Positions 720 to 27,205 of a stretch of 27,205 nucleotides of DNA are shown in pieces; the stretch's first letter is position 1, and every line of letters starts with the position of its first letter. The stretch lies in UHGV virus genome UHGV-0267347, one strand, 5' to 3'. A program made the translations under genes and the position numbers. A model generated the notes under the pieces. The model made no database searches. It was not told the origin of the DNA and saw only the letters and a list, made by a program, of their open reading frames with translations. The DNA is from a virus.

Positions 720-1313
720 CTAAAATATGGATGTTAAATAATTGCTAAGTCTTTTTGCATTCTTACAGAATGCCAAAGCATCTTCCTGAGTACATAAGAG
801 CTTTCCTTGGGATATAGGCTTAATAGACTCTCCTGTTTTTTCATAAAGCTTAACAATGTCACTAGAAATTTTGTTTGCAGATTGGACATTTTTCAAGGCA
901 GCGATACCTGAAGCCCGCCCTAAAGATGTCCCGTTGATCTCAATCCCCTTTTTAGATGCAAGCGTTATAGCGGTTAACTCCAATTCGCGCCAAGCTGAAA
1001 GTACAGCAACATTAGGCTGAGTACTAGCAAGACTCTCAAAAATATTGAAATTCTCAATGAGTTGTGTCGGCAGGACAAGATTTGTTCCAGGTAAATTTTT
1101 AATAACCTCTATACTTTTAGATTCTATTTCAAACATTTCTTTTTTAAATTTAATCTCATAGTCACCTAGCTTAACTGTATTAAGACGACCTAAAACCATT
1201 ATTATTTCTTTTTTTAAAGTAAAAAAGACAATCAAACAAGCAAGAACAATAAATAAAACATTGCCTTCTTTAAGAAGCATCTCTATCCAGTAAAAAAAAG
1301 TATAGTCCGTCAT
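720..1313 (-). CDS. hypothetical membrane-anchored protein (197 aa)
   Basis: ORF with N-terminal hydrophobic stretch (NVLFIVLACLIVFFTL) and hydrophilic remainder; strongly AT-rich codon usage; lies directly downstream of the spanins on the same strand. Confidence 0.55.
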   Translation of the reverse strand: MTDYTFFYWIEMLLKEGNVLFIVLACLIVFFTLKKEIIMVLGRLNTVKLGDYEIKFKKEMFEIESKSIEVIKNLPGTNLVLPTQLIENFNIFESLASTQPNVAVLSAWRELELTAITLASKKGIEINGTSLGRASGIAALKNVQSANKISSDIVKLYEKTGESIKPISQGKLLCTQEDALAFCKNAKRLSNYLTSIF

Positions 1314-2505: not shown

Positions 2506-2832
2506 TTACTCCTTAGAGCCACCAAACTTATTACCGATTACTCTCATTGCAGCCCCACGAATAGCATCAACACCGATCAGCCCCACCCCACCACCAATGG
2601 CAACAGATAGTGATTTAGGCCATCCGACATACTCAAGAGCGGATGCAAAAGTCAGCGTCAGAGCGCCACAGAGTAGAATTTCGAGTGTTTTTCGCTTCCA
2701 GCCGCCACCACCGCCAAAATAGGCAATACGTAAACCAGCCATAACAATCGACATAATCACTGCGCCCAGCGGTGTGTCTCCACGCCACCAGCTCTGGACC
2801 AACTCCAGCCAGGTATTTGGGTTATGAGGCAT
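2506..2832 (-). CDS. holin (lambda S-like class I, three predicted TM helices)
   Basis: 108 aa, three hydrophobic segments, Gly-rich loop (AYFGGGGGW, compare lambda S YLRGRYNGG) and charged C-terminus; sits directly upstream of the endolysin. Confidence 0.8.
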   Translation of the reverse strand: MPHNPNTWLELVQSWWRGDTPLGAVIMSIVMAGLRIAYFGGGGGWKRKTLEILLCGALTLTFASALEYVGWPKSLSVAIGGGVGLIGVDAIRGAAMRVIGNKFGGSKE

Positions 2833-2983
2833 TTGTAGTTATCTCTCACCTCGCCGATACAGGAGGTGCAAATTGAGGGAGTACCACGAACCGCAAACCA
2901 GAAGCGGAAACGTAAAAGAAGCCGAGCCAATGGATAAGTACTAGATAGACCAAGCCCAACGAATACCAAGGCCCAGAAATGAC

Positions 2984-3006
2984 AAAACCCGCTCGACGGC
3001 GGGTTT
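2984..3006 (-). terminator. tR'-like intrinsic terminator hairpin upstream of the holin
   Basis: cccgc-tcgacg-gcggg stem-loop flanked by AAAA on the plus strand and TTT on the other side; on the minus strand this is a hairpin followed by a U-run, about 150 nt before the holin start, as for lambda pR'-tR'-S. Confidence 0.4.
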
Positions 3007-3178
3007 AAGCTGCGTGGCGAAGTAACCACTCTTAACACAGTAATCTAGAAAATGCGGACCGCGTTAGTGATTTTTATCTGTTTTTCCATTATTTTTTTGC
3101 CACACAGCTTAAAACGAAAAATAAAGCAGGCGTTGCCAAACCTCACGGTGACAGTTGGATTAGAATGAGGACATACTT

Positions 3179-4198
3179 TTGGATAAGTTTGATGAGATTC
3201 ATGTAGACATTGAATCTGAGCAGCAAGCCTTCGATTTGCTTGAAAGCTATCTTGATGGTTATGGTTTACCTGACAGTTTAAGTTTCAACGGATGGCCAAA
3301 CCTTACCATCAGATTAACCGGTGAAAAATTCAACAGATCGCTAACACCTTCAGTTATGAAGGGATTTGTTGAAATGCAAGCTCAAATCAACAAATCATAT
3401 GCCCTTGCCAAGTACGGTGTCCCTGACGTCCGCAAACTGACCAAAGAAGAACTTGATGCCCTAGAAATAGAAGTTACGGTAGAACAGGGTTCTTCAATAG
3501 TAGAAATCAATATTGATGGCTTTTTAACCAAACTCACACAGGAACTTGTTGGTAAAATGAACGCAACTGAGATCATGTTTACTGTTCTCGGCGCAGCAGT
3601 CATCTGGGGCGGAGTAACAGTATTTAAACGGTTCTTGGACAACCGCAAAGATATTCGCCTTGCAGAAATTGCTAAGGATGGAGAGAAAGAACATCTCCGG
3701 ACTATGCAGATCATGAGCGAACAAGAAACTAAACGCCTGCGGGTTATTTCAGAAATGATTGCGGAAAAACCACTTCTCGATAACATGGACCGTATGTCGT
3801 ATGACGCTAAAACCCAAATGGTCAAATCCTTTGTGCGTTCAGATAACGCTCAAATTGATGGCGTTACTATTGATTCTGAAATGGCGAAAGAGTTGGTTAC
3901 GAATGCTCGTAGACGTTCATCAGAAATGAGGATTGATGGTATTTACCGAATTGAAGAAGTCAATAATACTGACCCAGAGAGTTTCAAAGTTAAGGTCCGA
4001 CGCGTAGATACCGACCAACGTCTAACCTGCGTAGTTCAGGATGTTTTCCTTGATGAATCCGGAAACAAAGAAGCATTGCAGCGAGCTGAGTGGGAAAGAA
4101 AGCCTGTACATTTGAGCATTAACGCAAAACACGTCGATGGTGACATTAAGTCAGCAGTAATTCTCTATGTTCGAGATGTGGAACAAAAGCCCGAGTAA
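3179..4198 (+). CDS. hypothetical protein (339 aa) with one central TM helix; moron between Q and the lysis cassette
   Basis: Long ORF on the strand opposite to the late operon, TTG start with a GAGGA SD-like sequence 8 nt upstream; central hydrophobic segment IMFTVLGAAVIWGGVTVF; lower GC than flanking phage genes; no motif recognised. Confidence 0.65.
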   Translation: MDKFDEIHVDIESEQQAFDLLESYLDGYGLPDSLSFNGWPNLTIRLTGEKFNRSLTPSVMKGFVEMQAQINKSYALAKYGVPDVRKLTKEELDALEIEVTVEQGSSIVEINIDGFLTKLTQELVGKMNATEIMFTVLGAAVIWGGVTVFKRFLDNRKDIRLAEIAKDGEKEHLRTMQIMSEQETKRLRVISEMIAEKPLLDNMDRMSYDAKTQMVKSFVRSDNAQIDGVTIDSEMAKELVTNARRRSSEMRIDGIYRIEEVNNTDPESFKVKVRRVDTDQRLTCVVQDVFLDESGNKEALQRAEWERKPVHLSINAKHVDGDIKSAVILYVRDVEQKPE

Positions 4199-4212
4199 TC
4201 GGGCTTCAATAA

Positions 4213-4605
4213 TCAATCTTTAACTTCGGGGTCCATCTCTAGACTAATTTCCAACATCGATAGGCAGCCATCAATAAACCCCTCAGCCATCTGTATCTCA
4301 ATGCGTATTAGTTTCTCATCCTTTTTACGAGCCTTGGCGAGCTTTCTTTTAGAGATACCGTATAGATAATGGGCAACAAGAAGCGAATGTTCGTCCGGCC
4401 TTTTTTGCCTTAGACGAGCAAGACAACCTTCAATAATTAATGCATCACTATCTGAACATGCCTGACGTGTTTTGCTTGTATAGGGAAGAAGCCCTTTAAA
4501 CCCAGCAGCTATAGGAGAATAGTCTACTCCTGAACTATCACTCACCGCCCATGCTCCCCAACGCTCCAGAACCATTTGAATATCACGCATCAACTTTCTC
4601 CACAA
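4213..4605 (-). CDS. Q: late-gene antiterminator Q (Phage_antitermQ / QuuD-like); alternative start at 4590
   Basis: MRDIQMVLERWGAWA...IAAGFKGL...CLARL...AEGFIDGCLSML matches the recalled N-terminus and Cys/His pattern of E. coli prophage Q-type antiterminators. Confidence 0.85.
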   Translation of the reverse strand: MWRKLMRDIQMVLERWGAWAVSDSSGVDYSPIAAGFKGLLPYTSKTRQACSDSDALIIEGCLARLRQKRPDEHSLLVAHYLYGISKRKLAKARKKDEKLIRIEIQMAEGFIDGCLSMLEISLEMDPEVKD

Positions 4606-10459: not shown

Positions 10460-11086
10460 ATGGAAACGGTTGGTCAGCGTATAAAAGCTCTGAGAAGAGT
10501 TACCGGAACGTCCCAGAAAGAATTGGGTAAATTTTGTGGAGTAAGCGACGTTGCTGTGGGGTACTGGGAGAAAGACATCAATACCCCTGGTGGGGAGGCA
10601 CTTTCGAAATTAGCGAAGTTCTTCAATACGTCAATAGATTACATTCTTTATGGTGCTGAGTTTGAAGGCAAACTCGTCACAAACATGCGCAGAGTTCCTG
10701 TAATATCGTGGGTTCAGGCTGGGCAGTTTACTGAGTGCAGGGCAGCAGAAGTGTTTAGTGAAGTGGACAAGTGGGTAGATACATCATTAAAGATTGGTGA
10801 TAACTCATTTGCATTAGAGGTTAAAGGTGACTCCATGACTAACCCTAATGGCCTCCCAACAATACCAGAAGGCGCAACAGTGATTGTAGATCCAGATGCA
10901 GAACCTCGTCATGGAAAAATAGTCATCGCTCGACTTGATGGAACAAACGAAGCTACAGTAAAAAAATTAGTCATCGATGGCCCTCAAAAGTTTTTAGTGC
11001 CATTAAATCCTCGGTATCCCAACATCCCTATCAATGGTAATTGCCTTATCATTGGTGTAGTCAAAGGAGTTCAATACGAACTCTAA
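10460..11086 (+). CDS. cI: CI-type repressor (XRE HTH + S24 LexA-like peptidase)
   Basis: N-terminal HTH (QKELGKFCGVSDVAVGYWEKD), C-terminal GDSM serine motif (VKGDSMTNP) and downstream Lys (VKKLVIDG), characteristic of autocleaving phage repressors. Confidence 0.9.
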   Translation: METVGQRIKALRRVTGTSQKELGKFCGVSDVAVGYWEKDINTPGGEALSKLAKFFNTSIDYILYGAEFEGKLVTNMRRVPVISWVQAGQFTECRAAEVFSEVDKWVDTSLKIGDNSFALEVKGDSMTNPNGLPTIPEGATVIVDPDAEPRHGKIVIARLDGTNEATVKKLVIDGPQKFLVPLNPRYPNIPINGNCLIIGVVKGVQYEL

Positions 11087-11333: not shown

Positions 11334-11540
11334 ATGCACAAAACAGAACCCAAAATCGTCGCGCCTGGCTACACAGATGAGGAAATTTATGAGTGGATGA
11401 CAAAGAAGCTGGCAGCTATAAACCAGCTTCGTGAAGTGCTGTCTTATCGACAGGAAACAATAGACTCCTTAAAAAAACTGGATCAGGAAATCACGGTTTT
11501 ATCACAGGATGTTACTTTAGATATTGTGCAGACAAATTAG
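11334..11540 (+). CDS. hypothetical small protein (68 aa), first ORF after the pL-like region
   Basis: ATG at 11334 preceded by GAGGAGGTG SD; coiled-coil-like sequence; overlaps the 3' end of the opposite-strand 144-aa ORF, so it is uncertain. Confidence 0.35.
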   Translation: MHKTEPKIVAPGYTDEEIYEWMTKKLAAINQLREVLSYRQETIDSLKKLDQEITVLSQDVTLDIVQTN

Positions 11541-11946
11541 GATCCCATTCATTTTCGTCAAAATCATCAAAGTGATGAATTTGTGATCTCCAGTCTCGAT
11601 AATCTAAAAATTTCTGGGCGGTTACGCTTATTTTATCAAGTGTGAGTTCATCCTGAATTGAAAGAAGAAGTTCATCAAATTTCATCTCATTAATCTGTTT
11701 TGGCATCCAGTGATGCTTCATCAGAATAAGGTGAACCAGAGCCTTTTTCCCATTCAACTGATTATAGGGAGTGCCGAATTTCTTCCGGTGCTCATGTAAG
11801 ACAAGGTCCAGAAGAGTAAGTAATGTTGCCCTTGATTCAACTTTGCTTATTTCGACTGATGACACTACCCCACTGATTTCAATGCCCCGATACTTTCCAA
11901 CATTTTCACAGTGGGATTTGTACAGCGTGTAGATATTACCGGACAT
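11512..11946 (-). CDS. hypothetical protein (144 aa), antisense to the early-left operon
   Basis: ORF track; AT-rich; intrinsic terminator on the same strand about 240 bp downstream; no motif recognised. Confidence 0.5.
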   Translation of the reverse strand: MSGNIYTLYKSHCENVGKYRGIEISGVVSSVEISKVESRATLLTLLDLVLHEHRKKFGTPYNQLNGKKALVHLILMKHHWMPKQINEMKFDELLLSIQDELTLDKISVTAQKFLDYRDWRSQIHHFDDFDENEWDPNLSAQYLK

Positions 11947-13685: not shown

Positions 13686-14035
13686 TGGAGCCATACAGCC
13701 TCACACTCGATGAGGCCTGTCATTTTCTCAAGATATCCAGACCGACTGCCATTAACTGGATACGCACAGGGCGTCTTCAGGCAACACGCAAAGATCCCAC
13801 TAAGAATAAATCTCCTTACCTCACAACACGACAAGCCTGCATTGCGGCTCTTCAGTCTCCGCTGCATACTGTCCAGGTGAGCGCGGGTGATGGCATAACA
13901 GAGGAAAGAAAATGTCACTCTTCCGCAGAGGTGAAATATGGTACGCCAGTTTCACATTGCCGAACGGTAAAAGATTTAAACAGTCTCTTGGAACAAAGGA
14001 CAAAAGGCAGGCGACAGAACTCCATGACAAGCTAA
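13685..14035 (+). CDS. xis: excisionase-like HTH DNA-binding protein
   Basis: Internal ATG 13685 ([31 protein letters not shown]): Xis/AlpA-type HTH directly upstream of and overlapping int, as in lambda xis-int. Confidence 0.55.
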
Positions 14036-15075
14036 AGGCTGAAGCATGGCGGGTCAGCAAACTTGGTGAAATACCTGATATAACGTTCGAGGAAGCGTGT
14101 GTCAGGTGGCTTGAAGAGAAAGCACATAAAAAATCACTGGACGATGACAAAAGCCGGATCGGATTCTGGCTTCAACATTTCGCAGGAATGCAACTAAGAG
14201 ACATTACTGAATCAAAAATTTATTCAGCAATGCAGAAAATGACGAACCGGCGTCATGAGGAAAACTGGAAACTCAGGGCAGAAGCATGCAGAAAAAAAGG
14301 GAAACCTGTTCCAGAATACACGCCAAAACCAGCGTCCGTTGCAACGAAGGCTACGCATCTTTCATTTATAAAGGCCCTACTAAGAGCCGCAGAGCGTGAA
14401 TGGAAAATGCTGGATAAGGCACCAATTATTAAAGTGCCTCAACCAAAGAATAAACGGATCCGCTGGCTGGAGCCCCATGAAGCACAAAGGCTGATTGATG
14501 AATGTCCGGAGCCATTAAAGTCTGTTGTTGAATTTGCACTGGCAACAGGCTTAAGACGCTCGAACATCATCAACCTTGAATGGCAACAAATAGATATGCA
14601 GCGCCGGGTGGCATGGATAAACCCGGAAGAGAGTAAATCAAACCGCGCAATTGGCGTTGCGCTGAATGATACTGCATGTCGCGTATTGAAAAAACAAATC
14701 GGGAATCATCACCGTTGGGTATTTGTGTACAAGGAAAGCTGTACCAAACCAGACGGAACGAAAGCGCCAACAGTAAGGAAGATGCGGTATGACGCAAACA
14801 CAGCCTGGAAAGCGGCGCTGAGACGGGCTGGTATTGATGATTTCAGATTTCACGACTTGAGACACACCTGGGCAAGTTGGCTGGTTCAAGCCGGAGTCCC
14901 GTTGTCAGTGTTACAGGAAATGGGAGGCTGGGAGTCTATCGAAATGGTTCGTCGATATGCTCACCTTGCACCTAATCACCTTACCGAACACGCACGGCAA
15001 ATAGACTCGATCCTGAACCCATCGGTCCCAAATTTGTCCCAGTCAAAAAATAAGGAAGGTACTAATGATGTGTAA
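13912..15075 (+). CDS. int: tyrosine integrase
   Basis: 387 aa; C-terminal catalytic signature R...HDLRHTWAS...GGW...VRRYAHL (R-H-x-x-R-Y), transcribed toward the att core. Confidence 0.95.
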
Positions 15076-15439: not shown

Positions 15440-16858
15440 TCAGTCAAATAATTTATCGTCTGCCTCATAAGTTTCCTGAAACGTGAGGCTATTTGCATTA
15501 GGAACTGGATCATCTGCGTGTTGAATAATGGTTTGGCTTTTTAAAATGCTTTGCTTGAAAAAGCGTTTGCAAATTATCTCACCGTTAACTGGAAGCCAAT
15601 GCGTGGCCTCTGGAAATAGCGTAGAATTTATAGGGTTTTCCGCGTTTGGGTTATGAAAAATTTCAATTTCTGAAGTCCATGGCTCATAACTATAGGGTTC
15701 CCAAAGACGACGATATTGGTCACTGGCTACATCCATACTGAAGGGGATGCCACGTAAGGCTCCCGCCGAGTCATTAGCGAACTCACCAATCCTTATGTAC
15801 CGGTAGCCTTTGATCAAGGCGCCGGAAGAAACAGGTACTCTGCTCAGCTTGGATAAAGTCGCAGAATTAGAAAAAATAACCGCCGAGAGAGCAATGTTAT
15901 CGTGTGAATTAAACAAACCAGCACGGATTTTGGGGTCGCTTTTGAGGCAGTCGACAGTTTCTGCTACAGCCACAACCTTCCCATCTATTTCTTTTTCTCT
16001 TCCATAAAATCCATAGAGATAGGTAATTAGAGCCTCACGGCTCCACATCATTGAACCGGGAGCGTGAAAGTCCGCGATAGCAATGGCAAACGGCTTTCCT
16101 TCGACATGAGTGAGACTAGTGTAATTCTTGCGCAGTTTATTCCTTAGGGTCCGCGCATAACGTTCAGCCGCAATTCCCGATACCCTGTCTTGTCGGTTTA
16201 AAGGAAACGTCAGAGGTTCAGCCCTGGCATGGTCGTAACGGTCCGATGGATTAACTGTCACAGCTTCAATCCAGGCTTCTCCACCTGACCTGTTTATTAC
16301 GTGAAAATCAGGAGAGGGGTACTCCTGAGTGACTAACAACCCCTGTTCACGGAAACTGGCCAGGAGCATGGCTTCCCAAATACGTGTATGAAAGTTATCA
16401 GTCTGGCACTCTCTTGCCCAGTGAGTATCCGGATTTGGCATTGCAAGATACAATTGATTAAGCATCCATGCGCCAGGTGCTCTACAAGGATGTCCAAGTA
16501 GTTTGAATATGTTACTTGGTTGTCTACCTTCAACATCCCAAAGCGGTGCGCGCCTGCGTGTACCCGGAGGCAAAGGGACGCGACTCGCAGATTCATCGCA
16601 TGCCTCACGTATAATTGTGAAAGCCTCTTCTTCACTATATGAATCTGACTCCCAGCGTAGCACTGCCCATACATCGTCCTCACGACGCCGCATTATAAGA
16701 ATGCCATGCTTTCCGCTGTGACAATTACGTGTCAGTGCACAGACTGTGACATGATCATGACTACCCCAAGCGCTAACTGGAGGATCATCCCCAAATCCCA
16801 GACCTCGGGGAAGCGATAAGGCATATACATCGAATACACAAGACGGAATGGGAGTCAT
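15440..16858 (-). CDS. hypothetical protein (472 aa), unknown function
   Basis: Long ORF, no motif recognised; 5' third more GC-rich than the rest; directly downstream of the 156-aa ORF on the same strand. Confidence 0.65.
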   Translation of the reverse strand: MTPIPSCVFDVYALSLPRGLGFGDDPPVSAWGSHDHVTVCALTRNCHSGKHGILIMRRREDDVWAVLRWESDSYSEEEAFTIIREACDESASRVPLPPGTRRRAPLWDVEGRQPSNIFKLLGHPCRAPGAWMLNQLYLAMPNPDTHWARECQTDNFHTRIWEAMLLASFREQGLLVTQEYPSPDFHVINRSGGEAWIEAVTVNPSDRYDHARAEPLTFPLNRQDRVSGIAAERYARTLRNKLRKNYTSLTHVEGKPFAIAIADFHAPGSMMWSREALITYLYGFYGREKEIDGKVVAVAETVDCLKSDPKIRAGLFNSHDNIALSAVIFSNSATLSKLSRVPVSSGALIKGYRYIRIGEFANDSAGALRGIPFSMDVASDQYRRLWEPYSYEPWTSEIEIFHNPNAENPINSTLFPEATHWLPVNGEIICKRFFKQSILKSQTIIQHADDPVPNANSLTFQETYEADDKLFD

Positions 16859-16962
16859 CGAAAAGTCTCACTTAATGAGCCTAAAGATAGCGGCAAGCAG
16901 ACCATAAAAGACCGGTCCATAAGTAGGTACCTTCTGCATTCGTTAGCGATTTTTTGACTTTG

Positions 16963-17433
16963 CTAGCAGTCAAACCCAACAATTAACTCTTCAGTAATCT
17001 CACTTAAGGAGACTATGCCTTTATATCCAGTTTCAACGTATGGGACCACCCTATCACTCCATGCCTCTTCTGCTTTCCATGCAGTCCAGGGGATCAATTT
17101 ATCGAATTTGCTTTCATGAAGAAATAGTATTGAAATTCTATCATTAGGCACATGTTTTATAAACTGAGTTGGAAAACATTTATAGGCATGTTCTTCCCAA
17201 TGCTTAGTCCCATAACATCTGTAGTCAAAAAAGGAAACACAGTTACGCCGTCTGAAAAAACCATTTGATGAGTTTCCAAATCTTGACATCTGCAATAATT
17301 CCGAGTTTGGGATCAAAGCGCCGGACTGTTTTATGAGAGACATATTATTTTCAGGCGTAACATGGAACACTCTTCCTAAAAGAGCAGGTAATATATCATT
17401 GTGAGATATGATTTTGAGTTGACTGACTTTCAT
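16963..17433 (-). CDS. hypothetical protein (156 aa), unknown function
   Basis: AT-rich ORF, no motif recognised; probable first gene of a two-gene operon with 15440..16858. Confidence 0.55.
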   Translation of the reverse strand: MKVSQLKIISHNDILPALLGRVFHVTPENNMSLIKQSGALIPNSELLQMSRFGNSSNGFFRRRNCVSFFDYRCYGTKHWEEHAYKCFPTQFIKHVPNDRISILFLHESKFDKLIPWTAWKAEEAWSDRVVPYVETGYKGIVSLSEITEELIVGFDC

Positions 17434-17588
17434 ATATCTTGACCATCGAAATATGGATTAGTGCAATACGTTAACATAGCATAATGTCACTAGCGTCTCC
17501 TATTGGCACATAGCAGTCCTAGAGACACTGGCGTAAAGCCATGGAGGATCGGTGGGAGGAGGCGCTAATCCTTTCATACAAAAAATAT

Positions 17589-17686
17589 GTAAAATCAATA
17601 ACGGCTGTAAATCATTCAATACTCGCCCTATCGGAAGTTCACCAGCCAACCGCAGCACGTTCTTGCATACGACGTGGCTGCGGTTT
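17589..17686 (+). repeat. 98-bp direct repeat, copy A (hairpin-containing)
   Basis: gtaaaatcaataacggctgtaaatcattcaatactcgccctatcggaagttcaccagccaaccgcagcacgttcttgcatacgacgtggctgcggttt; about 92% identical to copy B; contains imperfect inverted repeat cagcacgt...acgtg(g)ctg. Confidence 0.8.
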
Positions 17687-17784
17687 CAACTCCCGCCAAT
17701 CATGATTGAGCGATAGTAGAATAGTAATAACAAAAATTGGTAGTTATCAGGCTCAGCAAAACACCAATCGGGTGGTGAGGATAC

Positions 17785-17808
17785 AAAAAAGGCACCCGCA
17801 GGTGCCTT
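17785..17808 (-). terminator. intrinsic terminator (minus-strand sense)
   Basis: aggcacc-cgca-ggtgcct hairpin preceded by AAAAAA on the plus strand (stem + U6 for a leftward transcript). Confidence 0.45.
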
Positions 17809-17869
17809 AAATACTACCCCTTAGCAGCGCACTAAAAATGCCCACGCCTCGTACCCGTAATCATGAGCA

Positions 17870-17974
17870 TCAAGGACTTTTTTTGATTTCCCACGCACCT
17901 TGCGGTAACGGCAGAAAACCCAACGGAACCCTTTGGGCGCCGCTTTTGAAGCAATTGATTTCAAACCCATTCAT
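17870..17974 (-). CDS. candidate small ORF (34 aa) with canonical SD
   Basis: TAAGGAGGTG then 4 nt then ATG; MNGFEINCFKSGAQRVPLGFLPLPQGAWEIKKSP; lies between the ImmA-like gene and a terminator; not in the ORF track (below its size cut-off). Confidence 0.3.
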   Translation of the reverse strand: MNGFEINCFKSGAQRVPLGFLPLPQGAWEIKKSP

Positions 17975-18093
17975 AAAACACCTCCTTACCAAGAGAGATT
18001 TTTCCCTTGAACATCTTCCCTGAAGGTGTTAATTTCAGGCTGTCTATCGAAGCTGTTCACGGTGGTGATGCCTCTTGGATTCATCACCTAAAG

Positions 18094-18129
18094 CCCCTTG
18101 CACTGGTTGGCGCCAAGCAAGGGGTTTTT
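18094..18129 (+). terminator. intrinsic terminator hairpin (strong in plus sense) abutting the ImmA-like stop codon
   Basis: ccccttgc-(15 nt loop)-gcaagggg followed by TTTTT. Confidence 0.5.
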
Positions 18130-18649
18130 ACATTTTGTCTAGCTGATAACGCGCTGCCACTAATGAAACTCCGCATGCCTCAGCAACATCCTCAGCCGTC
18201 ATACCTTTTAAAATACTGGCATGCATAGCTGGCACTAATAACTCACCACTAAAACATTTAGCTTGCCATTCACTACTCTCAAAAGGGCGGATTTTTACCC
18301 CTGGGGCAGAACGAGCAAATGCGATGTTCCTGTGCATAAGAAGATGACCCAGTTCATGCGCGGCAGTCATCCTATCTCGCCCTACCCCATTCAAAGCGCC
18401 TTCGTAAATGTCTTCGCGCAGAATCAATAAATGTTCCTGTGGGTATGTAAGACCATGCGTCTCTCCCATTTCTTTCATACCACCAATGTGGAACTCAAAA
18501 TCCGGGATCAACTGAGGCAATGCGAACTCAATTACCTCCATTACAGGGAATTTAAGCCCAGTAATACCAAATGCGCTCCGCAGAGATCTGACGATAGAAC
18601 GTATTGATTCACGATTCTGCGGAGGTACACGATAATCTTGTCCGCTCAA
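18128..18649 (-). CDS. ImmA/IrrE-family zinc metallopeptidase (COG2856-like)
   Basis: HEXXH motif in AAHELGHLLMH; 173 aa; immediately downstream of an XRE HTH gene. Confidence 0.85.
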   Translation of the reverse strand: MSGQDYRVPPQNRESIRSIVRSLRSAFGITGLKFPVMEVIEFALPQLIPDFEFHIGGMKEMGETHGLTYPQEHLLILREDIYEGALNGVGRDRMTAAHELGHLLMHRNIAFARSAPGVKIRPFESSEWQAKCFSGELLVPAMHASILKGMTAEDVAEACGVSLVAARYQLDKM

Positions 18650-18657
18650 GCCGCCTC

Positions 18658-19017
18658 CTACTGCTGTTTTCGATTCAAAATCTGTCGTAAATTACGGAAG
18701 TCTTCTTCATTTAACTCATCAAAACTACGAGCGAACGCAATTGCGACTTCACGAGCGTGGCCATTCTTACCTGACAAGCTGATCTCTACTGACTGCTGAG
18801 AGTCACGAGCTGCACTGATAAGCTTTTCTTTTTGTTTTTCATCCGCATTAAAATAGCTAATGATGCTATCAAGCACGGGCTTAGTGACCGCCCTTTTACC
18901 AGTTTCGATCGCTGAAAGATAAGACGAGGTCATGCCCATAGCCTCAGCCATGCTTTTAAGCGTAAGCCCCAAGTCTATGCGCATTTTTCTTACTGTCTTA
19001 CCAAACGGCGTTAACAT
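18658..19017 (-). CDS. XRE-family HTH transcriptional regulator
   Basis: N-terminal HTH (KMRIDLGLTLKSMAEAMGMTSSYLSAIETGKR); 119 aa; paired with the metallopeptidase gene. Confidence 0.85.
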   Translation of the reverse strand: MLTPFGKTVRKMRIDLGLTLKSMAEAMGMTSSYLSAIETGKRAVTKPVLDSIISYFNADEKQKEKLISAARDSQQSVEISLSGKNGHAREVAIAFARSFDELNEEDFRNLRQILNRKQQ

Positions 19018-19197
19018 AGTTGCTTCTCCAGTGTGTCAAAGACCTTCAGTACTTCAGGTCTCATTTTAAGTTAACACTCCACAGACATGAAATCAACAAA
19101 ATTCTGTTAATTTTTTTATCTTGCTTAGTTTATGAGTTTACATCTTATGTTGATAGAACTGTTGGTTGGTGAAGAATCATGGGGAAATGAGTCGTAA

Positions 19198-19353
19198 TCT
19201 CTTGATATTTTATGGTATGGAGATGAGCGTCAAAGCTACCATAGCGATGATTTTCCTGTTACCTACACCGCAGATAAGGATTCTGCTAATGCTTTTGTTC
19301 AGGAGACTCTGAAAGATACCTGGGAGTCTGCTGACGAGTGGTTTGTTCATTAA
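19198..19353 (+). pseudogene. 3'-terminal remnant (51 codons, no start codon) of an unidentified gene
   Basis: Open frame bounded by an upstream stop, reading [51 protein letters not shown], protein-like composition, ending 8 bp before repeat copy B. Confidence 0.35.
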
Positions 19354-19360
19354 TTAATAC

Positions 19361-19458
19361 GTAAAATCGATAACGGCTGGAAATCATTCAATACTCGCAC
19401 TATCGAAAGTTCACCAGCCAGCCACAGCACGTTCTTGCATACAACGTGCCTGCGGTTT
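19361..19458 (+). repeat. 98-bp direct repeat, copy B
   Basis: gtaaaatcgataacggctggaaatcattcaatactcgcactatcgaaagttcaccagccagccacagcacgttcttgcatacaacgtgcctgcggttt, followed by a T-run. Confidence 0.8.
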
Positions 19459-19549
19459 TTGAGACCGGTCCGATCATCAAACGAAACATAAAATTAGCTC
19501 ACACTATGAGGAAAAGTATCTTTTTTACTATGTAAATTCAAAGGATTAG

Positions 19550-20419
<870 letters not shown>

Positions 20420-20439
20420 GTCTTTAAGTGATAAGCATA

Positions 20440-20480
20440 AACCGCAGCACGATCTTCTTGCATACGACGTGCTACGGTTT
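20440..20480 (+). repeat. direct repeat, partial copy C (hairpin core only)
   Basis: aaccgcagcacgatcttcttgcatacgacgtgctacggttt shares the 3' hairpin core of copies A and B; lies between the GIY-YIG stop and the pin stop. Confidence 0.7.
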
Positions 20481-21034
20481 CATTTATCTCCGACCGGAAA
20501 CTTCTTATACAGTGTCGATATACCAACATCATAGATGATCGCCACCTTCTGGCGAGGAACGCCTGATGCAATTAATCGTCCGGCCTGCTCCCATTGTTCT
20601 GGTGTAAGTTTGGGGCGACGTCCACCAATTCGTCCCTGTGCGCAAGCTACTTCCAGTCCAGCTTTTGTTCGTTCAACAATCAGTTCACGCTCCATTTCAG
20701 CCAGGGCACCCATCACATGAAAGAAAAAGCGCCCCATTGGGGTACTGGTATCAATTGAATCCGTCAGACTACGAAAGTTGATGCCTCGTTCGCGCAACTC
20801 CTCCACCAGCACGACAAGATGCCGCATACTGCGCCCCAGTCGGTCCAGTTTCCAGACCACCAGCGTATCACCTGCCGATAATGTCCTGAGCAGTTTTTTC
20901 AGTCCCGGCCTTTCGGACTTTGTACCGCTTATCTTGTCTTCAAAAATCAGCTCGCATCCTGCACAGTTCAGCGCATTACGTTGTAGATCTGTGTTCTGGT
21001 CATTTGTTGACACACGTACATAGCCAATAAGCAT
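20480..21034 (-). CDS. pin: DNA invertase, Pin/Gin/Cin-family serine recombinase
   Basis: Start at internal ATG 21034; MLIGYVRVSTNDQNTDLQRNAL...LVVWKLDRLGRSMRHL...GRFFFHVMGALAEMERELI is near-identical to recalled e14 Pin; 184 aa. Confidence 0.95.
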   Translation of the reverse strand: MLIGYVRVSTNDQNTDLQRNALNCAGCELIFEDKISGTKSERPGLKKLLRTLSAGDTLVVWKLDRLGRSMRHLVVLVEELRERGINFRSLTDSIDTSTPMGRFFFHVMGALAEMERELIVERTKAGLEVACAQGRIGGRRPKLTPEQWEQAGRLIASGVPRQKVAIIYDVGISTLYKKFPVGDK

Positions 21035-21088
21035 GGTAGATCTCCCTGACAAAAGCAGGAATGATGCCATTTGCTCGTTATTTCTGCA

Positions 21089-21114
21089 TTTTCATAAACG
21101 TTGGTTTGGGAGAA
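21089..21114. other. 26-bp invertase crossover site (pix/gix-like), site 1
   Basis: Minus-sense TTCTCCCAAACC-AA-CGTTTATGAAAA; inverted repeat of site 2; half-site resembles recalled gix TTATCCAAAACC. Confidence 0.7.
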
Positions 21115-21555
21115 GCGGCAAAACGAAATGTGGGCAACGGGGAAAAACAAATCCCTGATATGTCTTTCTGGACGGTTACTGGTGGCAATGGAAATTTTGT
21201 GATTCGTCAACCTGACGGGCTAATCATTCAGATGGTTACTGTAAGTATAAGCGGTCCAGTGGCGATGAATGGAATGACTGATAATGCTTATGCCATTACA
21301 GGTTCTAATAAGTCTTATATTGCCACAGCCACATTGCCCTTTGTATTTCCTAATAAGGTGCTGGGCGTTATCCCTCTGGTATCAACAACAGCTTATGGTG
21401 GTGTATCCAGTAATATTACAGGTTCATACGCGACTGCGGTTTGTTCTTTTGCCGCTGTCAGGGGGAATAATACGATTGTGTTCAAAGTCGACAAACCACT
21501 GAATGCAGCCTTTCCTTCAGATACCAGCGTCTCAGCGTTAATCATTGGACGGTAA
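21103..21555 (+). CDS. alternative tail-fibre C-terminal variable segment (Sv'), promoterless and start-less in the current orientation
   Basis: Frame is open through crossover site 1 and encodes ...NVGLGEAAKRNVGNGEK...; after inversion it would fuse in frame to the constant N-terminus ending ...[10 protein letters not shown]. Confidence 0.7.
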   Translation, partial: GLGEAAKRNVGNGEKQIPDMSFWTVTGGNGNFVIRQPDGLIIQMVTVSISGPVAMNGMTDNAYAITGSNKSYIATATLPFVFPNKVLGVIPLVSTTAYGGVSSNITGSYATAVCSFAAVRGNNTIVFKVDKPLNAAFPSDTSVSALIIGR

Positions 21556-21557
21556 TA

Positions 21558-22001
21558 ATGAACTCAGTATTCTTTTCACCCGGAAGTAAAAGTTTTTATC
21601 TGCAAGAATTGTTTCCAGAATATGAGGATGCGGGAACGCTTCCTGATGATGTTATTGAAATTACCCGAGAAACATATGAGCAATTTCTTGGGCTGCATCC
21701 AGAAGGGAAAGAAATTGGCGCTGATAGTTCAGGACGGCCAGTATGGATTAATTCCCCACCCCCTTCAAAAGAGGATGAGGTGTTGACGGCTGAAATGAAA
21801 AAAATATCTTTGGTTTCAGAAGTCAATACCTACATCAATACCCATCAGTGGCCTGGCAAAGCTGCTATTGGTCGTCTGAAAGGTGAGGAACTGGCGCAAT
21901 ATAATTTGTGGCTGGATTATCTGGACGCACTGGAACTGGTTGATACCTCCAGGGCTCCAGATATTGAATGGCCTACGCCTCCGGCAGTTCAGGCCAGATG
22001 A
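21558..22001 (+). CDS. tail fibre assembly protein (alternative, Tfa'/U'-like)
   Basis: 147 aa; C-terminal ...[26 protein letters not shown] motif shared with the convergent tfa gene; lies inside the invertible segment. Confidence 0.8.
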   Translation: MNSVFFSPGSKSFYLQELFPEYEDAGTLPDDVIEITRETYEQFLGLHPEGKEIGADSSGRPVWINSPPPSKEDEVLTAEMKKISLVSEVNTYINTHQWPGKAAIGRLKGEELAQYNLWLDYLDALELVDTSRAPDIEWPTPPAVQAR

Positions 22002-22578
22002 CATCCGGCGCGGTGCTGGTATCTGTTACCGTCACCGCGTCAATGTAATCCAGCACGGCGTTAAGTCGGGTTGTTTCTGCCTGCGTCAACTTCCGCCCGG
22101 CCTGTAATTTCAGTTGAATCAGACTAATGGAAGCCATTGCAGCATCAATCAGTGACTGACGCTGTGCTTCTGCCGCTTCGACTGCTGCGCTATGCTGTGC
22201 CTCAGTATCGGTCACCCATTTCTCACCATCCCATTTATCGTATGGCGTTAATGGAGCGATAGTGGTCGTGTTTTCAGGGTAATCACCCGGAGCTGTGATT
22301 TCTTTTGATTCTCCTGTTTCGGTGCTATAGACGATTTCACCGCGATGGTCTGGCACATATTCCCATGAGTTAAAATCTGCAGAACGGCAAATTGCATAAC
22401 CAGCTTTATATGAGCCAGGAGCATCTAAACAGGAACATGCCGGGATACCGACACCCACAGCAAGATATTCAGTTGATGTGGAAATATATTCTCGTGTCTC
22501 ACCATCATAATTGTAAACGGTAATGTCTCCCGCCTTTGTGGTGATGAGTTCGCTATTTAATACAGCTTTATTCATCAT
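21973..22578 (-). CDS. tfa: tail fibre assembly protein (Tfa/U-like)
   Basis: 201 aa; C-terminal ...[30 protein letters not shown] is the conserved Tfa C-terminus; directly downstream of the tail fibre gene. Confidence 0.85.
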
Positions 22579-23360
22579 GCGGCCCTCACAATATAATTAA
22601 AGGCGATGTTACGTGGACGATTTTCATTTGCTGTTGGAACAACATTTGCCGCCGAGAAGTGAACATCTTGTCGGATTTTTCGGTCATTAGCGTATGTCAT
22701 AGATACGTTGATGTTATTCCGGACTGAGGTACCTCCGTAAAAAGCACCACTCACACTTTGAACATCAACAATTGCATTAATTTCGCTGTTTACGCGCAAC
22801 TGACCAAAACCGCCAGTAATGTTTCGAATAGCATCTCCTTGCGCTGAAAGCAGAGTTCGCCCACTATCCACACCACGTTCATCATCCCAGCCACGAATAA
22901 ACTCACCACGTAAATCAGGCAATTTATTTGTCGGATAAGCCTTTGCCAGTTCCGGGTATTCTTCAGCAGAAAAAGCGGCACCGTTGCATTTCAGCCAGCC
23001 TGTTGGCGGAGTGGCTGAAGGCCACGGAACAGGGACACCAACAGGTAATGCAGAGCCTTCTCCCAAACCAAGGTTTTCGAGAGCCGTTTTCACCGTGCCA
23101 TCCGATTTGATATCGCCAAACGGATTCTTGCGGCTTAACAGCAGCGCGCGAAGCGCGGTAAGTAGCTGGTCGTGCCGCCCCTTCTCCAGGCTGGCACCGG
23201 ACGCCTCCACAACGCTGCAAAGCTCCTCCTGCAACATGTCAAAGTAGTCATCATCCAGATCGGTGGCAGGCGTGCCGGTCTGGGGGTTACCACGGGTAAA
23301 ACCGTTCTTACCCGCGCCGAACTTATCCTTCTGCGCGGTTTTCGTGTCTATACGATGCAT
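22575..23360 (-). CDS. tail fibre protein: constant N-terminus (~98 aa) fused to invertible variable C-terminus
   Basis: Crossover site 2 lies in frame inside the gene; arrangement Sc-Sv-tfa / tfa'-Sv' / invertase matches the Mu G, P1 C and e14 P segments. Confidence 0.8.
23058..23083. other. 26-bp invertase crossover site (pix/gix-like), site 2, inside the tail-fibre gene
   Basis: Plus-sense TTCTCCCAAACC-AA-GGTTTTCGAGAG, imperfect palindrome; encodes the conserved LGLGE junction of the tail fibre. Confidence 0.7.
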
Positions 23361-23363
23361 GGA

Positions 23364-23948
23364 TTACTCCGGATATTTAAAAATTACGTAGGTATGCGAC
23401 GGGCAGAGTTTGTTAAGCACACATTCGACAACTGTGTCGCCCCAGATACGCAGTGCGGAATCACAGGGATCGCCACATGTCATCCAGGTGGTGTTGGTGG
23501 CGGCTGGCATGTTGACCTGCCAGTAATACCGCCATTCAGGCGCGTTCACAGCGTCAGTACAGGCCGATGAGCAGGTGAACGTGCTTTTGTCGTATCGCGT
23601 GATGGTGGCATCTGGTCTGCCCAGGGCAGCAAGCTGTGCAAGATAAAAATCCTCGTTGATGCCGCCCGCCAGGTTAACCTTCGCATCCAGCCGTTGCTGA
23701 CGCTGGCGAAGGGTCTGTGTCCCTGCGGGAATACATTCATCCGGCAGACCGCACAGACGCTCCCAGCGGTTTATCAGTTCAGTGGTGGTGCGCGGATCCA
23801 GCTCCCGCATCAGGGCATCCGCACGCTGATGAGCACGAGTTAATGAAGGTGCCGCACCGGCAATCGCCGGATCGCTGGCTGACCACGCCGGACCGGGGGG
23901 CAACAGTGCCGACAACAGACGGATGTAATCATCGTTTGTCACGTCCAT
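23364..23948 (-). CDS. YmfQ-like tail/baseplate protein (DUF2313, Mu gp48-like)
   Basis: 194 aa, same length and gene position as recalled e14 YmfQ, between the J-like gene and the tail fibre. Confidence 0.75.
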
Positions 23949-24997
23949 GAAATCGTCCCCAGAACCGCCAGTTCATTTTTTGCAATGGAGATATTGTCCG
24001 CCGGTGCAAGCAACTGATGGCTGTATTCCCCGTTCGCACCGGAAATCGCCTCACTGATACGCGACACCTTCAGTTCTCCCTGCGGATAACCATCACGCAG
24101 CAGGAACGAACGCAACTCCGCGGTGATGGCGGCTCGTATTTCCGGTGTATCCGGCGTAACGCGGATATGAAAATCCACCGTATGTGCCACCGGCCTGAAC
24201 ACATACAAATCAGAGCCTGCCACCGGAGCCAGTGGCCCGATATGTTGTCTTGCCGCCGTTTCCGTTGATTCTTCCGGAATGGGATTAATCAGGTCGCTGC
24301 TGGCAATCATCACACCGACAGTCCCCGTTCCCATCCAGTGACGGTATGTCCATGCGCGGGTAATGCCGGGCACTTCTTTAGCCCAGACGACATAGTCCCC
24401 GTCAGCCCCGCCCTGCGGCGTCCAGTAATACCGCTCAATGACGCGGGCGCGCCACGTTTCCAGCTCTTCAGTATCAAATCCGCCTGTCAGGGTGTCAGCC
24501 ACACCGGAAGACGGCAGACCATTAACCGGCGTGACCAGGATTAATGCCGTACCGTCGTCAGCGTTACCGACCGCGCCTGCACTTGAGCAGGCGATCGGCA
24601 CGCGCAGGACACCACCGGAGCTGGTTGCATCGGCAGTTGCCGTGTACTGCACCAGGTCATCGCGCTGAATAACACTCCCGGCGGTCACCTTCAGGCCATC
24701 GCTGACACCTTCCCAGCGCATATACCCGCTGGCAGCCGTGGCCCCCTTGCGCGGACACCGTTTCATCGCAGCATGTCGCGCCAGCCAGGACTCATCGCAC
24801 AAGTCAGGCAACATGTTCATTGCCAGATAATCGATGTACCCGTAAACCGTATGCAGCGCCGCCGCATACACCATTGCCCGCACGTCTTCATCCATGCGCC
24901 GGAGCGTGTCGCTGACGTCCAGCCTGGCGAATAAATCGTTACGGAGCATACTGATATTTTCTGCCAGCGTCGGACGCTGAAATTCACTGTCCGCCAT
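23939..24997 (-). CDS. baseplate J-like protein (Mu gp47 / P2 gpJ family)
   Basis: 352 aa; position and size within the baseplate module; call from recalled homology only. Confidence 0.8.
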
Positions 24998-25412
24998 GCG
25001 TTATCGCACTCCACAGATCATCAAAAGAAATCATTACCGGTCCGTCACGACGCCAGAGAGTGATACTGTTACCCAGTTCATTAATCCCGGTGCGGCGGAT
25101 ATCCAGATCAATACGGGACACCACGCCATCATCAATCATCCATTGCAGGCATTCGCGGATATACCCCCTTACCGTCTGCACCAGCTGATTGGTCAGTTTG
25201 CTGCGCTGAAGCAGCCACAGTCGGGAGCCGTAACGGTCATTCTGTACCGCAGGCCAGGTATCCCCCCACCATCCCATCGGGACGTCGGCATTGTCATCAG
25301 GTTCAGCCCGCCGCCAGGTGAACATGGAAATCACCACGGCACGGGTCAGCGGATCCAGCGGTGCGCTGGCGCAGGTGCGTTTACCGTTCACCGTCAGCCA
25401 CAGTTCCATCAT
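24984..25412 (-). CDS. baseplate protein (Mu gp46-like / GPW-gp25 family)
   Basis: 142 aa, between the V-like and J-like genes, as gpW/gp46 in P2- and Mu-type baseplate modules. Confidence 0.65.
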   Translation of the reverse strand: MMELWLTVNGKRTCASAPLDPLTRAVVISMFTWRRAEPDDNADVPMGWWGDTWPAVQNDRYGSRLWLLQRSKLTNQLVQTVRGYIRECLQWMIDDGVVSRIDLDIRRTGINELGNSITLWRRDGPVMISFDDLWSAITHGGQ

Positions 25413-25957
25413 GCCTCCATCGCTTTATCAGGTTTGTCGGTGTTACTGCCCTGACCGTTCTCTCTGTGACGATGCCAGTTATAGGCAAGCCTCATCGCTG
25501 ACATGGTGGTGCCGCTGGAGTCGCACAGGTCTTTCACCTGTCCGGTCACTTCCAGGTCCATTTCAAAACGAGCCTTAGGCGCATTGCGAAACGTGATCGT
25601 TTTCCCTGCACCGTCCACCACGATCCCCGCCCGGGTCAGCGTCACGGACTGCCCCTGATCGTCATAGACAGCCACCTCACCCGTCTGCAGCCCTTTCAGG
25701 CGGTAGCGCCGGTCCGACACCGTAACAACCACCGCATGAGAACGGTCACCATCCGGAAACAACACCACCGCTTCCGCACCGCTGTTTGCCCTTGCGGTAA
25801 AACCGTAGGGTTCAAGATGTTCAACCCCGGCTTTGGGTTCACCGGCAATCAGGGACACATCCACGGTCTGACATTTCGTGGCGGCACTGATGCTTTTCAC
25901 CACCGCCCGCCCAATCAGGCCGAGGAGTTGTCGCTGTATGGTTTCAATCGCCTTCAT
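25409..25957 (-). CDS. baseplate spike/assembly protein V (Mu gp45-like)
   Basis: 182 aa; ATGA overlap with the downstream gene; position in the module; call from recalled homology only. Confidence 0.75.
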   Translation of the reverse strand: MKAIETIQRQLLGLIGRAVVKSISAATKCQTVDVSLIAGEPKAGVEHLEPYGFTARANSGAEAVVLFPDGDRSHAVVVTVSDRRYRLKGLQTGEVAVYDDQGQSVTLTRAGIVVDGAGKTITFRNAPKARFEMDLEVTGQVKDLCDSSGTTMSAMRLAYNWHRHRENGQGSNTDKPDKAMEA

Positions 25958-26859: not shown

Positions 26860-26865
26860 TTTTGA

Positions 26866-27111
26866 ACCGTTTTTAATGCGCTGTTTCTGGCGCTGCGCCG
26901 GGTGAAAGCAGATCTGAATGCGGATATCAACACGCGCCTTGAACAGTCTGCACGGATCATTCAGCGCACACCGGATGAGGTTTTACCCGCGCTGGTGCTG
27001 GCGGCGACCTGGTTTGATAACGCGGCGCGTGACGCGGACATTATCCGGCGTAATGCCATTACGCATCCCGGCTTTGTGCCGGTGATCCCTCTGAAGGTGC
27101 CAGTGCAATGA
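26866..27111 (+). pseudogene. 3' fragment (about 81 codons) of a Mu gp43-like (DNA circulation) gene; 5' part missing
   Basis: Frame open from 26866 with no plausible upstream continuation (upstream is antisense of the gp44-like gene); ends in a TGA that overlaps the ATG of the next gene. Confidence 0.45.
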
Positions 27112-27205
27112 ACGACAATGTCACGCTACGGGTAAATGGCCGGGAGTGGAATGGCTGGACATCGGTGCGCATCGGTGCCGGTATTGAACGGCTGGCGCGG
27201 GATTT
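27109..27205 (+). CDS. N-terminus of a second gp44-like baseplate gene; continues beyond the right edge
   Basis: MNDNVTLRVNGREWNGWTSVRIGAGIERLARDF parallels the N-terminus of the minus-strand gp44-like protein. Confidence 0.55.

Follow-up and report, generated by a model that had tools for sequence, protein, structure and literature searches.

A cargo gene beside antiterminator Q in an Escherichia coli prophage encodes a candidate phage-exclusion protein of a large, uncharacterized family

The viral genome UHGV-0267347, analyzed here as one stretch of 27,205 nucleotides (nt) and referred to as the window, reads as an Escherichia (E.) coli lambdoid prophage. Near one end of it the genes for antiterminator Q and for the holin, both located on the minus strand, are separated by a plus-strand open reading frame (ORF), which encodes a protein of 339 amino acids (aa) and is the subject of this work. 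An earlier reading of the same DNA (the original prediction) had placed this ORF, with its TTG start, and had named the two neighbors; the placement and both neighbor assignments are confirmed (Table 1), and the earlier reading was largely right, with corrections that concern position. The data discussed below make it quite probable that the ORF is an accessory gene whose product is made in lysogens. That this product is a phage-exclusion or defense protein of a new family, expressed in the lysogen and probably associated with the membrane, is a reading to which we give about even weight.

The 339-aa protein is identical to RefSeq entry WP_000357056.1, which is labeled "hypothetical protein", and is matched from end to end by phrog_6191, a family annotated as of unknown function (E 1.6e-152, where E is the expectation value). 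The 2.3-kb stretch around the ORF shares 98-99% identity with prophages in the chromosomes of many strains, and the cassette that holds the ORF is found in 86 of 5,426 complete E. coli genomes, in one copy each, always on the chromosome and at an identity of at least 99.3%. The original prediction had raised the concern that the ORF might be disrupted in close relatives; it is intact in nearly all of these 86 genomes, a single copy being split by the insertion sequence IS1. At least 1,000 contigs, which come from several Enterobacteriaceae, also encode the exact protein. Beyond these identical copies, a word-indexed search returned 101 clusters at 90% identity, which reach down to 26% identity to the query and are nearly all 327-348 aa long, and an exhaustive profile search returned 1,523 full-length representatives at 50% identity with E≤1e-3 (591 with E≤1e-30). 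The length of the family members is thus near constant, about 330-345 aa, across more than 1,500 clusters.

In comparison with the Enterobacter and Klebsiella copies (86-90% aa identity), the nonsynonymous divergence (pN) is 0.06-0.08 and the synonymous divergence (pS) is saturated at about 0.8, i.e., pN/pS is about 0.1, and this low pN against a saturated pS indicates that the ORF is under strong purifying selection. The start codon is TTG in the copies from E. coli, Enterobacter, Klebsiella, Pantoea and Salmonella, i.e., the TTG start and the Shine-Dalgarno sequence are kept over five Enterobacterales genera, while homologues start with GTG in Pseudomonas and with ATG in Morganella and Acinetobacter. 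Weak TTG or GTG starts are common among dose-sensitive proteins. From the above discussion, we take the ORF to be a real gene and not a chance reading frame.

The original prediction had described the ORF as inserted between Q and the holin gene, at a classic moron site, and had proposed a comparison with relatives that lack the insert. In phage 1720a-02 the counterpart of window 2984-3084 reaches the end of Q and even overlaps it slightly, so that Q lies next to the late-promoter module with nothing between them; the distance from Q to this module is about 46 bp in 1720a-02 and 1.18 kb in the window. In phages cdtI and SfIV other plus-strand genes stand between the flanks shared with the window (up to 3075 and from 4232), i.e., a DUF6731 protein together with a 147-aa ORF in cdtI, and a 356-aa ORF, a 108-aa ORF and IS1 in SfIV. 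The SfIV 356-aa gene and the cdtI DUF6731 gene were considered as divergent members of the family and rejected (hhalign probability <1%). Shared flanks with differing contents mark the interval from Q to the late-promoter module as an exchangeable cargo slot, which holds a single gene in the window; as to cargo, the earlier claim therefore stands. Additional genes occupy the Q-proximal slot elsewhere, viz., two small multi-helix membrane ORFs in locus L089 (4222-5091, minus strand) and an unrelated 269-aa ORF in the Klebsiella locus L023 (6105-6914, plus strand), and the slot can therefore hold several cargos.

A recent and isolated insertion is not what the data describe. The GC content is 41.9% in the ORF, 51.1% in the holin gene, 55.7% in the DUF968 gene and 43.5% in Q. 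The "lower GC" of the ORF, as originally claimed, thus holds against the lysis side but not against Q, and because the GC content of Q is also low, the low-GC block takes in Q. Moreover, the linkage of Q and the ORF is kept in seven genera (E. coli, Enterobacter, Klebsiella, Pantoea, Entomohabitans, Rahnella and Serratia). The insertion picture is therefore to be retained for the cargo-like character of the gene and abandoned for its recent arrival; in this lineage the ORF travels as part of a module composed of Q, cargo and the late promoter (pR').

Two positional statements have to be revised. The ORF had been described as antisense to late transcription, but it is located upstream of pR' and diverges from it; late transcripts therefore never cross the ORF, and the only transcription that would run antisense to it is that of the early-right operon continuing past Q. 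Nor does the analogy to the slot of the Shiga toxin (stx) genes hold. Like the late cargo of Stx phages, the ORF lies within the broad Q-to-S interval, where relatives of the window prophage carry a methyltransferase gene, but stx and the methyltransferase gene are found downstream of pR' and the terminator tR', inside the late transcript, co-oriented with it and Q-dependent, whereas the ORF is located upstream of pR' in the opposite orientation and is not part of that transcript. In relatives such as ECONIH1 a methyltransferase gene and a small ORF follow the terminator, window 2860-2983 being replaced by 1.58 kb. It is this site downstream of tR' that forms the stx-type, Q-dependent slot proper, and the ORF occupies a separate one. 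Many close relatives (L002, 3456-5038; L043; L023) harbor a DNA methyltransferase gene and a 63-67-aa ORF past tR', co-oriented with the late genes, and the Stx phage 1720a-02 has the same methyltransferase arrangement upstream of stx2; the window is without a methyltransferase insert at this site (2860-2983).

The original prediction had also argued that the late promoter must lie within 3007-3178 and that the insert separates Q from its target by more than 1 kb. Both statements agree with the conserved module listed in Table 1, from which Q is about 1.15 kb away. Judged by its position and conservation, this module represents a putative pR'/qut/tR' unit (qut being the Q-utilization site). 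Its core contains an invariant palindrome, GCGGACCGC, which is preceded by an A-tract and is a candidate Q-binding element, and it contains a further invariant stretch, TGTTAAGAGTGGTTACTTCGCCAC. Several assignments of the -35 and -10 hexamers of the late promoter were tried and none was fixed: TAGATT (3047-3042), AAAAAT (3075-3070) and an extended TGnTAAGAG were dropped because none of them keeps both register and sequence over Klebsiella, Pantoea and 1720a-02. An 18-nt inverted repeat (16 of 18 positions), with arms at 3004-3021 and 3096-3113, is symmetric around the palindrome; shorter versions with the same offsets are found in Klebsiella (L023) and Rahnella (L031), while SfIV, with its other cargo, lacks the outer arm. 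This repeat might bind a regulator of the divergent promoters, or it might be left over from recombination.

On the other side of the late-promoter module, the region upstream of the ORF is kept across genera and travels with the gene. Within it, TTGCCA-17-AATAAA (3097-3125) is a candidate promoter with a weak match to the sigma-70 consensus. A conserved TAGAAT/TATAAT located right before the Shine-Dalgarno sequence was rejected as a -10 element because the Shine-Dalgarno sequence would then be lost from the mRNA. At the distal end, the stop codon of the ORF is overlapped by a hairpin, located between the convergent ORF and Q, that is followed by UUUUGUU on the Q strand and has no U-run on the ORF strand, i.e., it looks like a terminator for the Q strand only, and transcripts of the ORF may therefore run antisense into Q. 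A scan of 2700-4300 against Rfam returned no family. Q itself is a distant relative of Q21 (E 2e-4 against the Q21 structures PDB 6JNX/6P18). The mechanically called Q ORF has a TTG start and 130 aa, with additional codons (4594-4605) compared with its RefSeq relatives, in which an ATG 12 nt downstream, matching position 4593, gives 126 aa (MRDIQ...); this shorter form is more likely the correct one.

Table 1. Features at and around the 339-aa ORF; positions refer to the 27,205-nt window.
Feature	Position	Strand	Remarks
ORF of 339 aa (position including stop), TTG start	3179-4198	+	Identical to RefSeq WP_000357056.1; phrog_6191 member; indications of purifying selection
Shine-Dalgarno sequence GAGGA	3167-3171	+	7 nt before TTG; GAGG kept in the copies from Enterobacter, Klebsiella and Pantoea
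N-terminal alpha/beta domain, aa 1-126	3179-3556	+	Isoelectric point (pI) 4.5; signature LTGEKFxxSLTPSVMKGFVExQ...Y
Hydrophobic helix-kink-helix, aa 131-149	3569-3625	+	Conserved LGxAxIWGG, K/R-rich after; candidate membrane anchor
C-terminal OB-fold domain, aa 249-333	3923-4177	+	Motifs RIDGxY and AEW; pI 5.2
Antiterminator Q	4213-4605	-	PF06530, E 1.4e-52; distant relative of Q21
Lambda-family holin	2506-2832	-	PF05106, E 5.7e-25; first late gene downstream of the promoter module
Exchangeable cargo cassette	3076-4231	.	Bounds are where homology to cdtI, SfIV and 1720a-02 ends
Late-promoter/leader/tR' module	about 2978-3076	-	Common to 1720a-02, cdtI and SfIV
tR'-like intrinsic terminator hairpin, then T-run	2985-3006	-	
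Invariant palindrome GCGGACCGC	3054-3062	.	In the core of the late-promoter module; candidate Q-binding element
Upstream region of the ORF	3077-3178	+	Kept across genera, travels with the ORF; presumed own promoter
Stable 8-bp GC-rich hairpin over the ORF stop codon	4187-4206	.	Between the convergent ORF and Q

Homologues of the ORF are found in a limited number of genomic settings. Among the 80 best loci in IMG/VR, a sample biased to close relatives, 48 show the Q-convergent arrangement of the window and 17 have the gene behind a repressor, while the remaining inspected ones lie in late or tail regions. The Q-convergent homologues of Enterobacter, Klebsiella (with the extra 269-aa gene), Pantoea, Entomohabitans, Rahnella and Serratia adjoin at least four different holin families. 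In the second setting the homologue follows directly after a repressor with helix-turn-helix and S24 domains (cI-type), on the same strand and with a gap of 25-150 bp. This arrangement is found in Salmonella (63% identity), Morganella, Acinetobacter, two Pseudomonas species and Treponema, as well as in E. coli phage phi458, whose Orf11 is remotely homologous over its full length (hhalign probability 98% over 315 columns). The homologue of Moraxella phage Mcat17 is probably also repressor-adjacent, the ORF upstream of it not itself being confirmed as a repressor. Other homologues are co-oriented with structural genes, i.e., between tail genes I and J in Pseudomonas (P.) aeruginosa, among Mu-like head genes as well as close to the tape-measure gene in Halomonas/Vreelandella, and, in a clade with 46% identity, again close to the tape-measure gene. 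One distant homologue (L122) is located between a methyltransferase and a holin gene, which is the Stx-type position in the late operon.

The identical protein is kept in a rearranged prophage remnant without Q in E. coli ACN002 (L043; NZ_CP007491.1, 579268-580287), where a tail-fiber gene replaces Q downstream of the ORF, and this layout is common to at least three genomes. With homologues that move among these slots and are most often met in the rex position, the ORF is read as an accessory gene that is expressed in the lysogen. Taken together with its constraint, its distribution describes a mobile single-gene prophage cassette of a new, uncharacterized family, i.e., a moron that moves between prophage slots. 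In the Acinetobacter clade (L014, 5560-5862 and 7246-8193; L015; L016; L039) a conserved 100-aa ORF without a Pfam match always precedes the homologue; a GGDEF protein often follows it, and a protein with an HSDR_N domain precedes it once. These genes may be clade-specific partners or a small defense island behind the repressor.

The structure prediction that had been proposed for this protein gave a confident answer. The AlphaFold2 model, built with an alignment of 50 sequences, is one compact body (predicted local distance difference test score, pLDDT, 85.8; predicted template modeling score, pTM, 0.81). The N-terminal alpha/beta domain is followed by helices at residues 129-144 and 146-163, of which the first is hydrophobic with a GG kink, then by a helical hairpin (167-218) and a beta-rich C-terminus. 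Solved structures are matched only through the oligonucleotide/oligosaccharide-binding (OB) fold at the C-terminal end: there is no match in the Protein Data Bank (PDB) to the whole protein (best Foldseek E 5e-3), the OB quarter alone being covered, and the matched proteins are mostly single-stranded DNA (ssDNA)-binding proteins (PriB, SSB, RPA, RecO), but also SilF/CusF and toxin B subunits. The OB domain is acidic (pI 5.2-5.6) and so is the N-domain (pI 4.5), which argues against a classical ssDNA-binding role. Conserved positions of the family include G48, T56, P57, Q67, Y74, G104, S105, R251, D253, G254, Y256, E304, W305 and others, among which no catalytic residue pattern is recognizable.

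Sequence searches with the protein and with a 50-member profile against Pfam, NCBIfam, PADLOC and PDB sequences gave nothing significant. The weak matches FNIII-A_GpJ (18.6 bits), DUF7947 (17 bits) and HEXIM1 (E 0.06) are sub-threshold and were discarded; for Pfam DUF7947, the OB domain of members of the Acinetobacter clade scores 13-17 bits against a gathering threshold of 27. Three matches over the whole length in BFVD (E about 1e-5) were also set aside, with TM-scores of 0.22-0.27 and themselves uncharacterized. Separate profile searches with the N- and C-domains returned fragments of the family only, i.e., no domain fusions or new architectures. A relationship to a lysis accessory protein, which the original prediction had raised as an objection, is not seen: no lysis family is matched in Pfam or PHROG, and homologues are found far from lysis genes.

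The segment between the two domains, residues 131-149 (EIMFTVLGAAVIWGGVTVF), has a Kyte-Doolittle mean of 1.77 over 19 residues. Among the other proteins of the window the holin helix reaches 1.77 and the anchor of the Rz spanin 1.87, while soluble proteins give 0.1-1.1. The position of the hydrophobic segment is kept family-wide, and it is followed by 4-6 lysine or arginine residues (five in the protein of the window). The protein is likely to be membrane-associated.

Given these properties, the following course of events may be envisaged. The ORF would be transcribed in the lysogen from a promoter of its own, divergent from the constitutive late promoter, and the protein would reside at or in the inner membrane with its OB-fold end in the cytoplasm, acting as a non-enzymatic sensor or effector that excludes other phages or aborts their infection. 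An expression in lysogens and a role in exclusion are favored because relatives elsewhere usually reside right behind the prophage repressor. For genes behind cI, transcription from pRM would stop upon cleavage of the repressor, and the product would be switched off during the prophage's own induction; for genes beside Q, early-right read-through after induction would run antisense across the ORF and curtail the product in the phage's own lytic cycle. In both main positions, expression would thus be on in lysogeny and off when the prophage itself is induced.

The anti-phage function is, in our estimate, evenly poised between right and wrong, and action at the membrane is a tentative element of the proposal. 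Doubtful as well is the most complete version, in which the protein is the founding member of a widespread and structurally new single-protein anti-phage system, i.e., a membrane-tethered sensor whose acidic OB fold and novel N-domain recognize an infection cue and block DNA entry or collapse the membrane, with self-immunity provided by placement behind cI or convergent with Q rather than by an antidote protein.

An independent computational study arrived at a similar classification. In Table S10 of the DefensePredictor work (DeWeirdt, Mahoney, Laub, Science 2026; PMC13092281), WP_000357056.1 is listed as a "Predicted novel defense gene", with a mean log-odds of 6.55 (range 4.5-9.7, cut-off 4) and with no HHblits or Foldseek match to known defense proteins, and 45% of the predictions cloned in that study protected against phage (PMC13092281). 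The exact accession is listed with the "uncharacterized" predicted clusters of that study and scores above its cut-off, but the listing is a computational flag that carries no phenotype, mechanism or name, and by accession the protein is not among the validated DS systems (PMC13092281). No paper that names the family in its main text came up in literature searches with its accession and its PHROG, DUF and UniProt ids.

A number of observations weigh against the reading as a membrane-associated exclusion protein. The protein was not among the 94 units cloned in the DefensePredictor study, and the inputs of that method include GC content and neighboring genes (PMC13092281); therefore, the prediction is not fully independent of the argument from genomic context. 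Neither PADLOC 2.0 nor Pfam nor NCBIfam contains a match to the 339-aa protein, and PADLOC-DB 2.0 remains without a match when the limit is set at E≤1 with this protein and at E≤0.1 with four of its distant homologues. A convincing sigma-70 promoter was not found in the conserved region of ~100 nt upstream of the ORF. Some homologues are co-oriented inside late or tail operons, and with this placement they would also be made in lytic growth. As regards the membrane, the compact model (pTM 0.81) fits poorly with termini on opposite sides, the hydrophobic helix is kinked in that model, the apolar run is only 14-15 residues long in the Pseudomonas and Acinetobacter clades, the summed Hessa energy of the segment is positive, and translocation of a 126-residue N-domain without a signal peptide would be unusual. 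The compact model, the kinked helix, the short apolar runs of distant members and the missing signal peptide argue against a simple single-pass topology with the N-terminus outside and the C-terminus inside.

Moron behavior, lysogeny-linked positions and a membrane-like helix would also suit a lysogenic-conversion factor unrelated to phages, i.e., an envelope or stress protein that raises the fitness or virulence of the host, like lambda bor or lom. The retention of the protein in a decayed prophage fits such a role, as does an OB fold that also resembles the periplasmic metal-binding SilF/CusF and the folds of toxin B subunits. However, the hosts differ widely in lifestyle (enterics, Acinetobacter, Halomonas and Treponema), which points to a phage-centered rather than a niche function, the protein has neither a signal peptide nor a lipobox, and the genes best known from the slot next to the repressor are exclusion genes, so that we regard this alternative as rather unlikely. 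Hydropathy equal to that of true membrane helices in the window, together with the positive-inside charge pattern after the helix, speaks against a soluble cytoplasmic defense or regulatory protein that would hide the helix inside its fold or in an oligomer interface and use the OB fold to bind a phage protein or nucleic acid directly, thereby blocking replication or sensing infection. Such a protein would account for the compact and confident model (pLDDT 85.8, pTM 0.81), for the short hydrophobic stretch of distant clades with its many G, A, S and T residues, and for the fact that most OB-fold matches bind ssDNA (PriB, SSB, RPA, RecO), but the acidic OB domain (pI 5.2-5.6) is unlike that of typical ssDNA binders, and the proposal is an unlikely one.

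The cassette could instead tune the timing of the phage's own late genes, either by convergent transcription into Q, as with the lambda paQ antisense RNA, or by interaction with the lysis machinery, the protein being secondary. With 14 bp between the convergent stop codons and a hairpin that has no U-run on the ORF strand, antisense read-through into Q is plausible, and the tight linkage of Q and the ORF in seven genera agrees with such a function. Yet the protein is constrained along its whole length, homologues behind cI or within tail or head operons are remote from both Q and the lysis genes, and relatives with an empty slot or with other cargo are viable phages, which leaves this explanation improbable. 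That the ORF is spurious or decaying and is not expressed is barely credible: the bare "hypothetical" label, the non-ATG start and the failure to identify a promoter upstream stand against saturated synonymous sites at a pN/pS of about 0.1, a family of uniform length (about 330-345 aa) over more than 1,500 clusters, a retained Shine-Dalgarno sequence and start codon and a confident structure prediction, and this alternative is effectively refuted by the conservation data.

For the reading as an exclusion protein, the closest parallels in genomic position are genes next to prophage repressors. The lambda rexAB genes are proven exclusion genes in this slot. Defense genes are found there also in Gifsy prophages, i.e., GiPD474 and remAIN (PMC12724215). 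As with these systems, most distant homologues of the ORF are located right behind a cI-type repressor on the same strand, and they are prophage-borne and variable between related phages. Unlike rexAB, however, the ORF of the window is found beside Q and not in the immunity region, its homologues residing behind cI in at least seven other taxa, and there is no relation in sequence (hhalign probability 0.13% to RexA and 0.09% to RexB). GiPD474 was rejected as a relative; it is an unrelated ParA-like ATPase (PMC12724215), whereas the 339-aa protein shows neither an NTPase motif nor any other that would mark an enzyme. In the rex position of the window prophage itself, i.e., after cI (10460-11086, plus strand), there is a 143-aa ORF (11512-11946, minus strand) without a Pfam match.

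The morons of HK97 and HK022 and their counterparts (lambda bor and lom, HK97 gp15) share with the ORF the form of a single extra gene that is missing in some relatives, where its neighbors adjoin, with a 3' hairpin and a composition that may be atypical, found at several positions that include tail operons. The ORF differs from them in that its own promoter is only presumed and its GC content departs from that of the lysis side but not from that of Q, and, compared with exclusion morons of the HK97 gp15 type, its protein is much larger. P22 SieA, T4 Imm and lactococcal Sie2009 are small proteins of about 80-170 aa. The 339-aa protein resembles them in being encoded by a phage or prophage, in its hydrophobic anchor, in the absence of an enzymatic domain and in a presumed action at the membrane, but its helix is flanked by two sizeable soluble domains; no similarity to these three proteins was found in the PHROGs and Pfam scans, pairwise comparison not being part of the analysis. 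Finally, the OB proteins (SilF/CusF, AB5-toxin B subunits and PriB/SSB) differ from it in that the identity is 6-16%, a quarter of the protein is matched and the surface is acidic.

The ORF is no isolated oddity; it belongs to a very large and as yet unstudied prophage family, to which a computational method has drawn attention. If the function is defensive, this family, with its more than 1,500 sequence clusters from Enterobacterales, Pseudomonas, Acinetobacter, Halomonas and Treponema, would constitute a broadly distributed single-gene system without homology to catalogued ones, and in lambdoid prophages of the PF06530 type the interval from Q to the late promoter would be a hotspot for cargo, separate from the classical stx slot. 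A simple rule is suggested by the two preferred positions, i.e., that an exclusion gene is on in lysogeny and off in the phage's own lytic cycle. With the identical protein present in about 1.6% of complete E. coli genomes, an effect on the host range in phage therapy is conceivable.

Some further genes in the window fall outside this locus. A 197-aa ORF (720-1313, minus strand; GC content 33.8%) with an N-terminal hydrophobic helix belongs to phrog_30030, also annotated as of unknown function, and is located between Rz/Rz1 and the packaging genes, where L001 and L002 carry other genes; this site looks like a second variable cargo slot. Beyond the integrase gene (13912-15075) the region 15440-27205 is other mobile DNA, with a 471-aa ORF without a Pfam match (15440-16858, minus strand), genes for an IrrE/Peptidase_M78 protein (18128-18649, minus strand) and a GIY-YIG protein (19595-20419, plus strand), and a P2-type baseplate J gene (23939-24997, minus strand), which suggests a second prophage or a tailocin.

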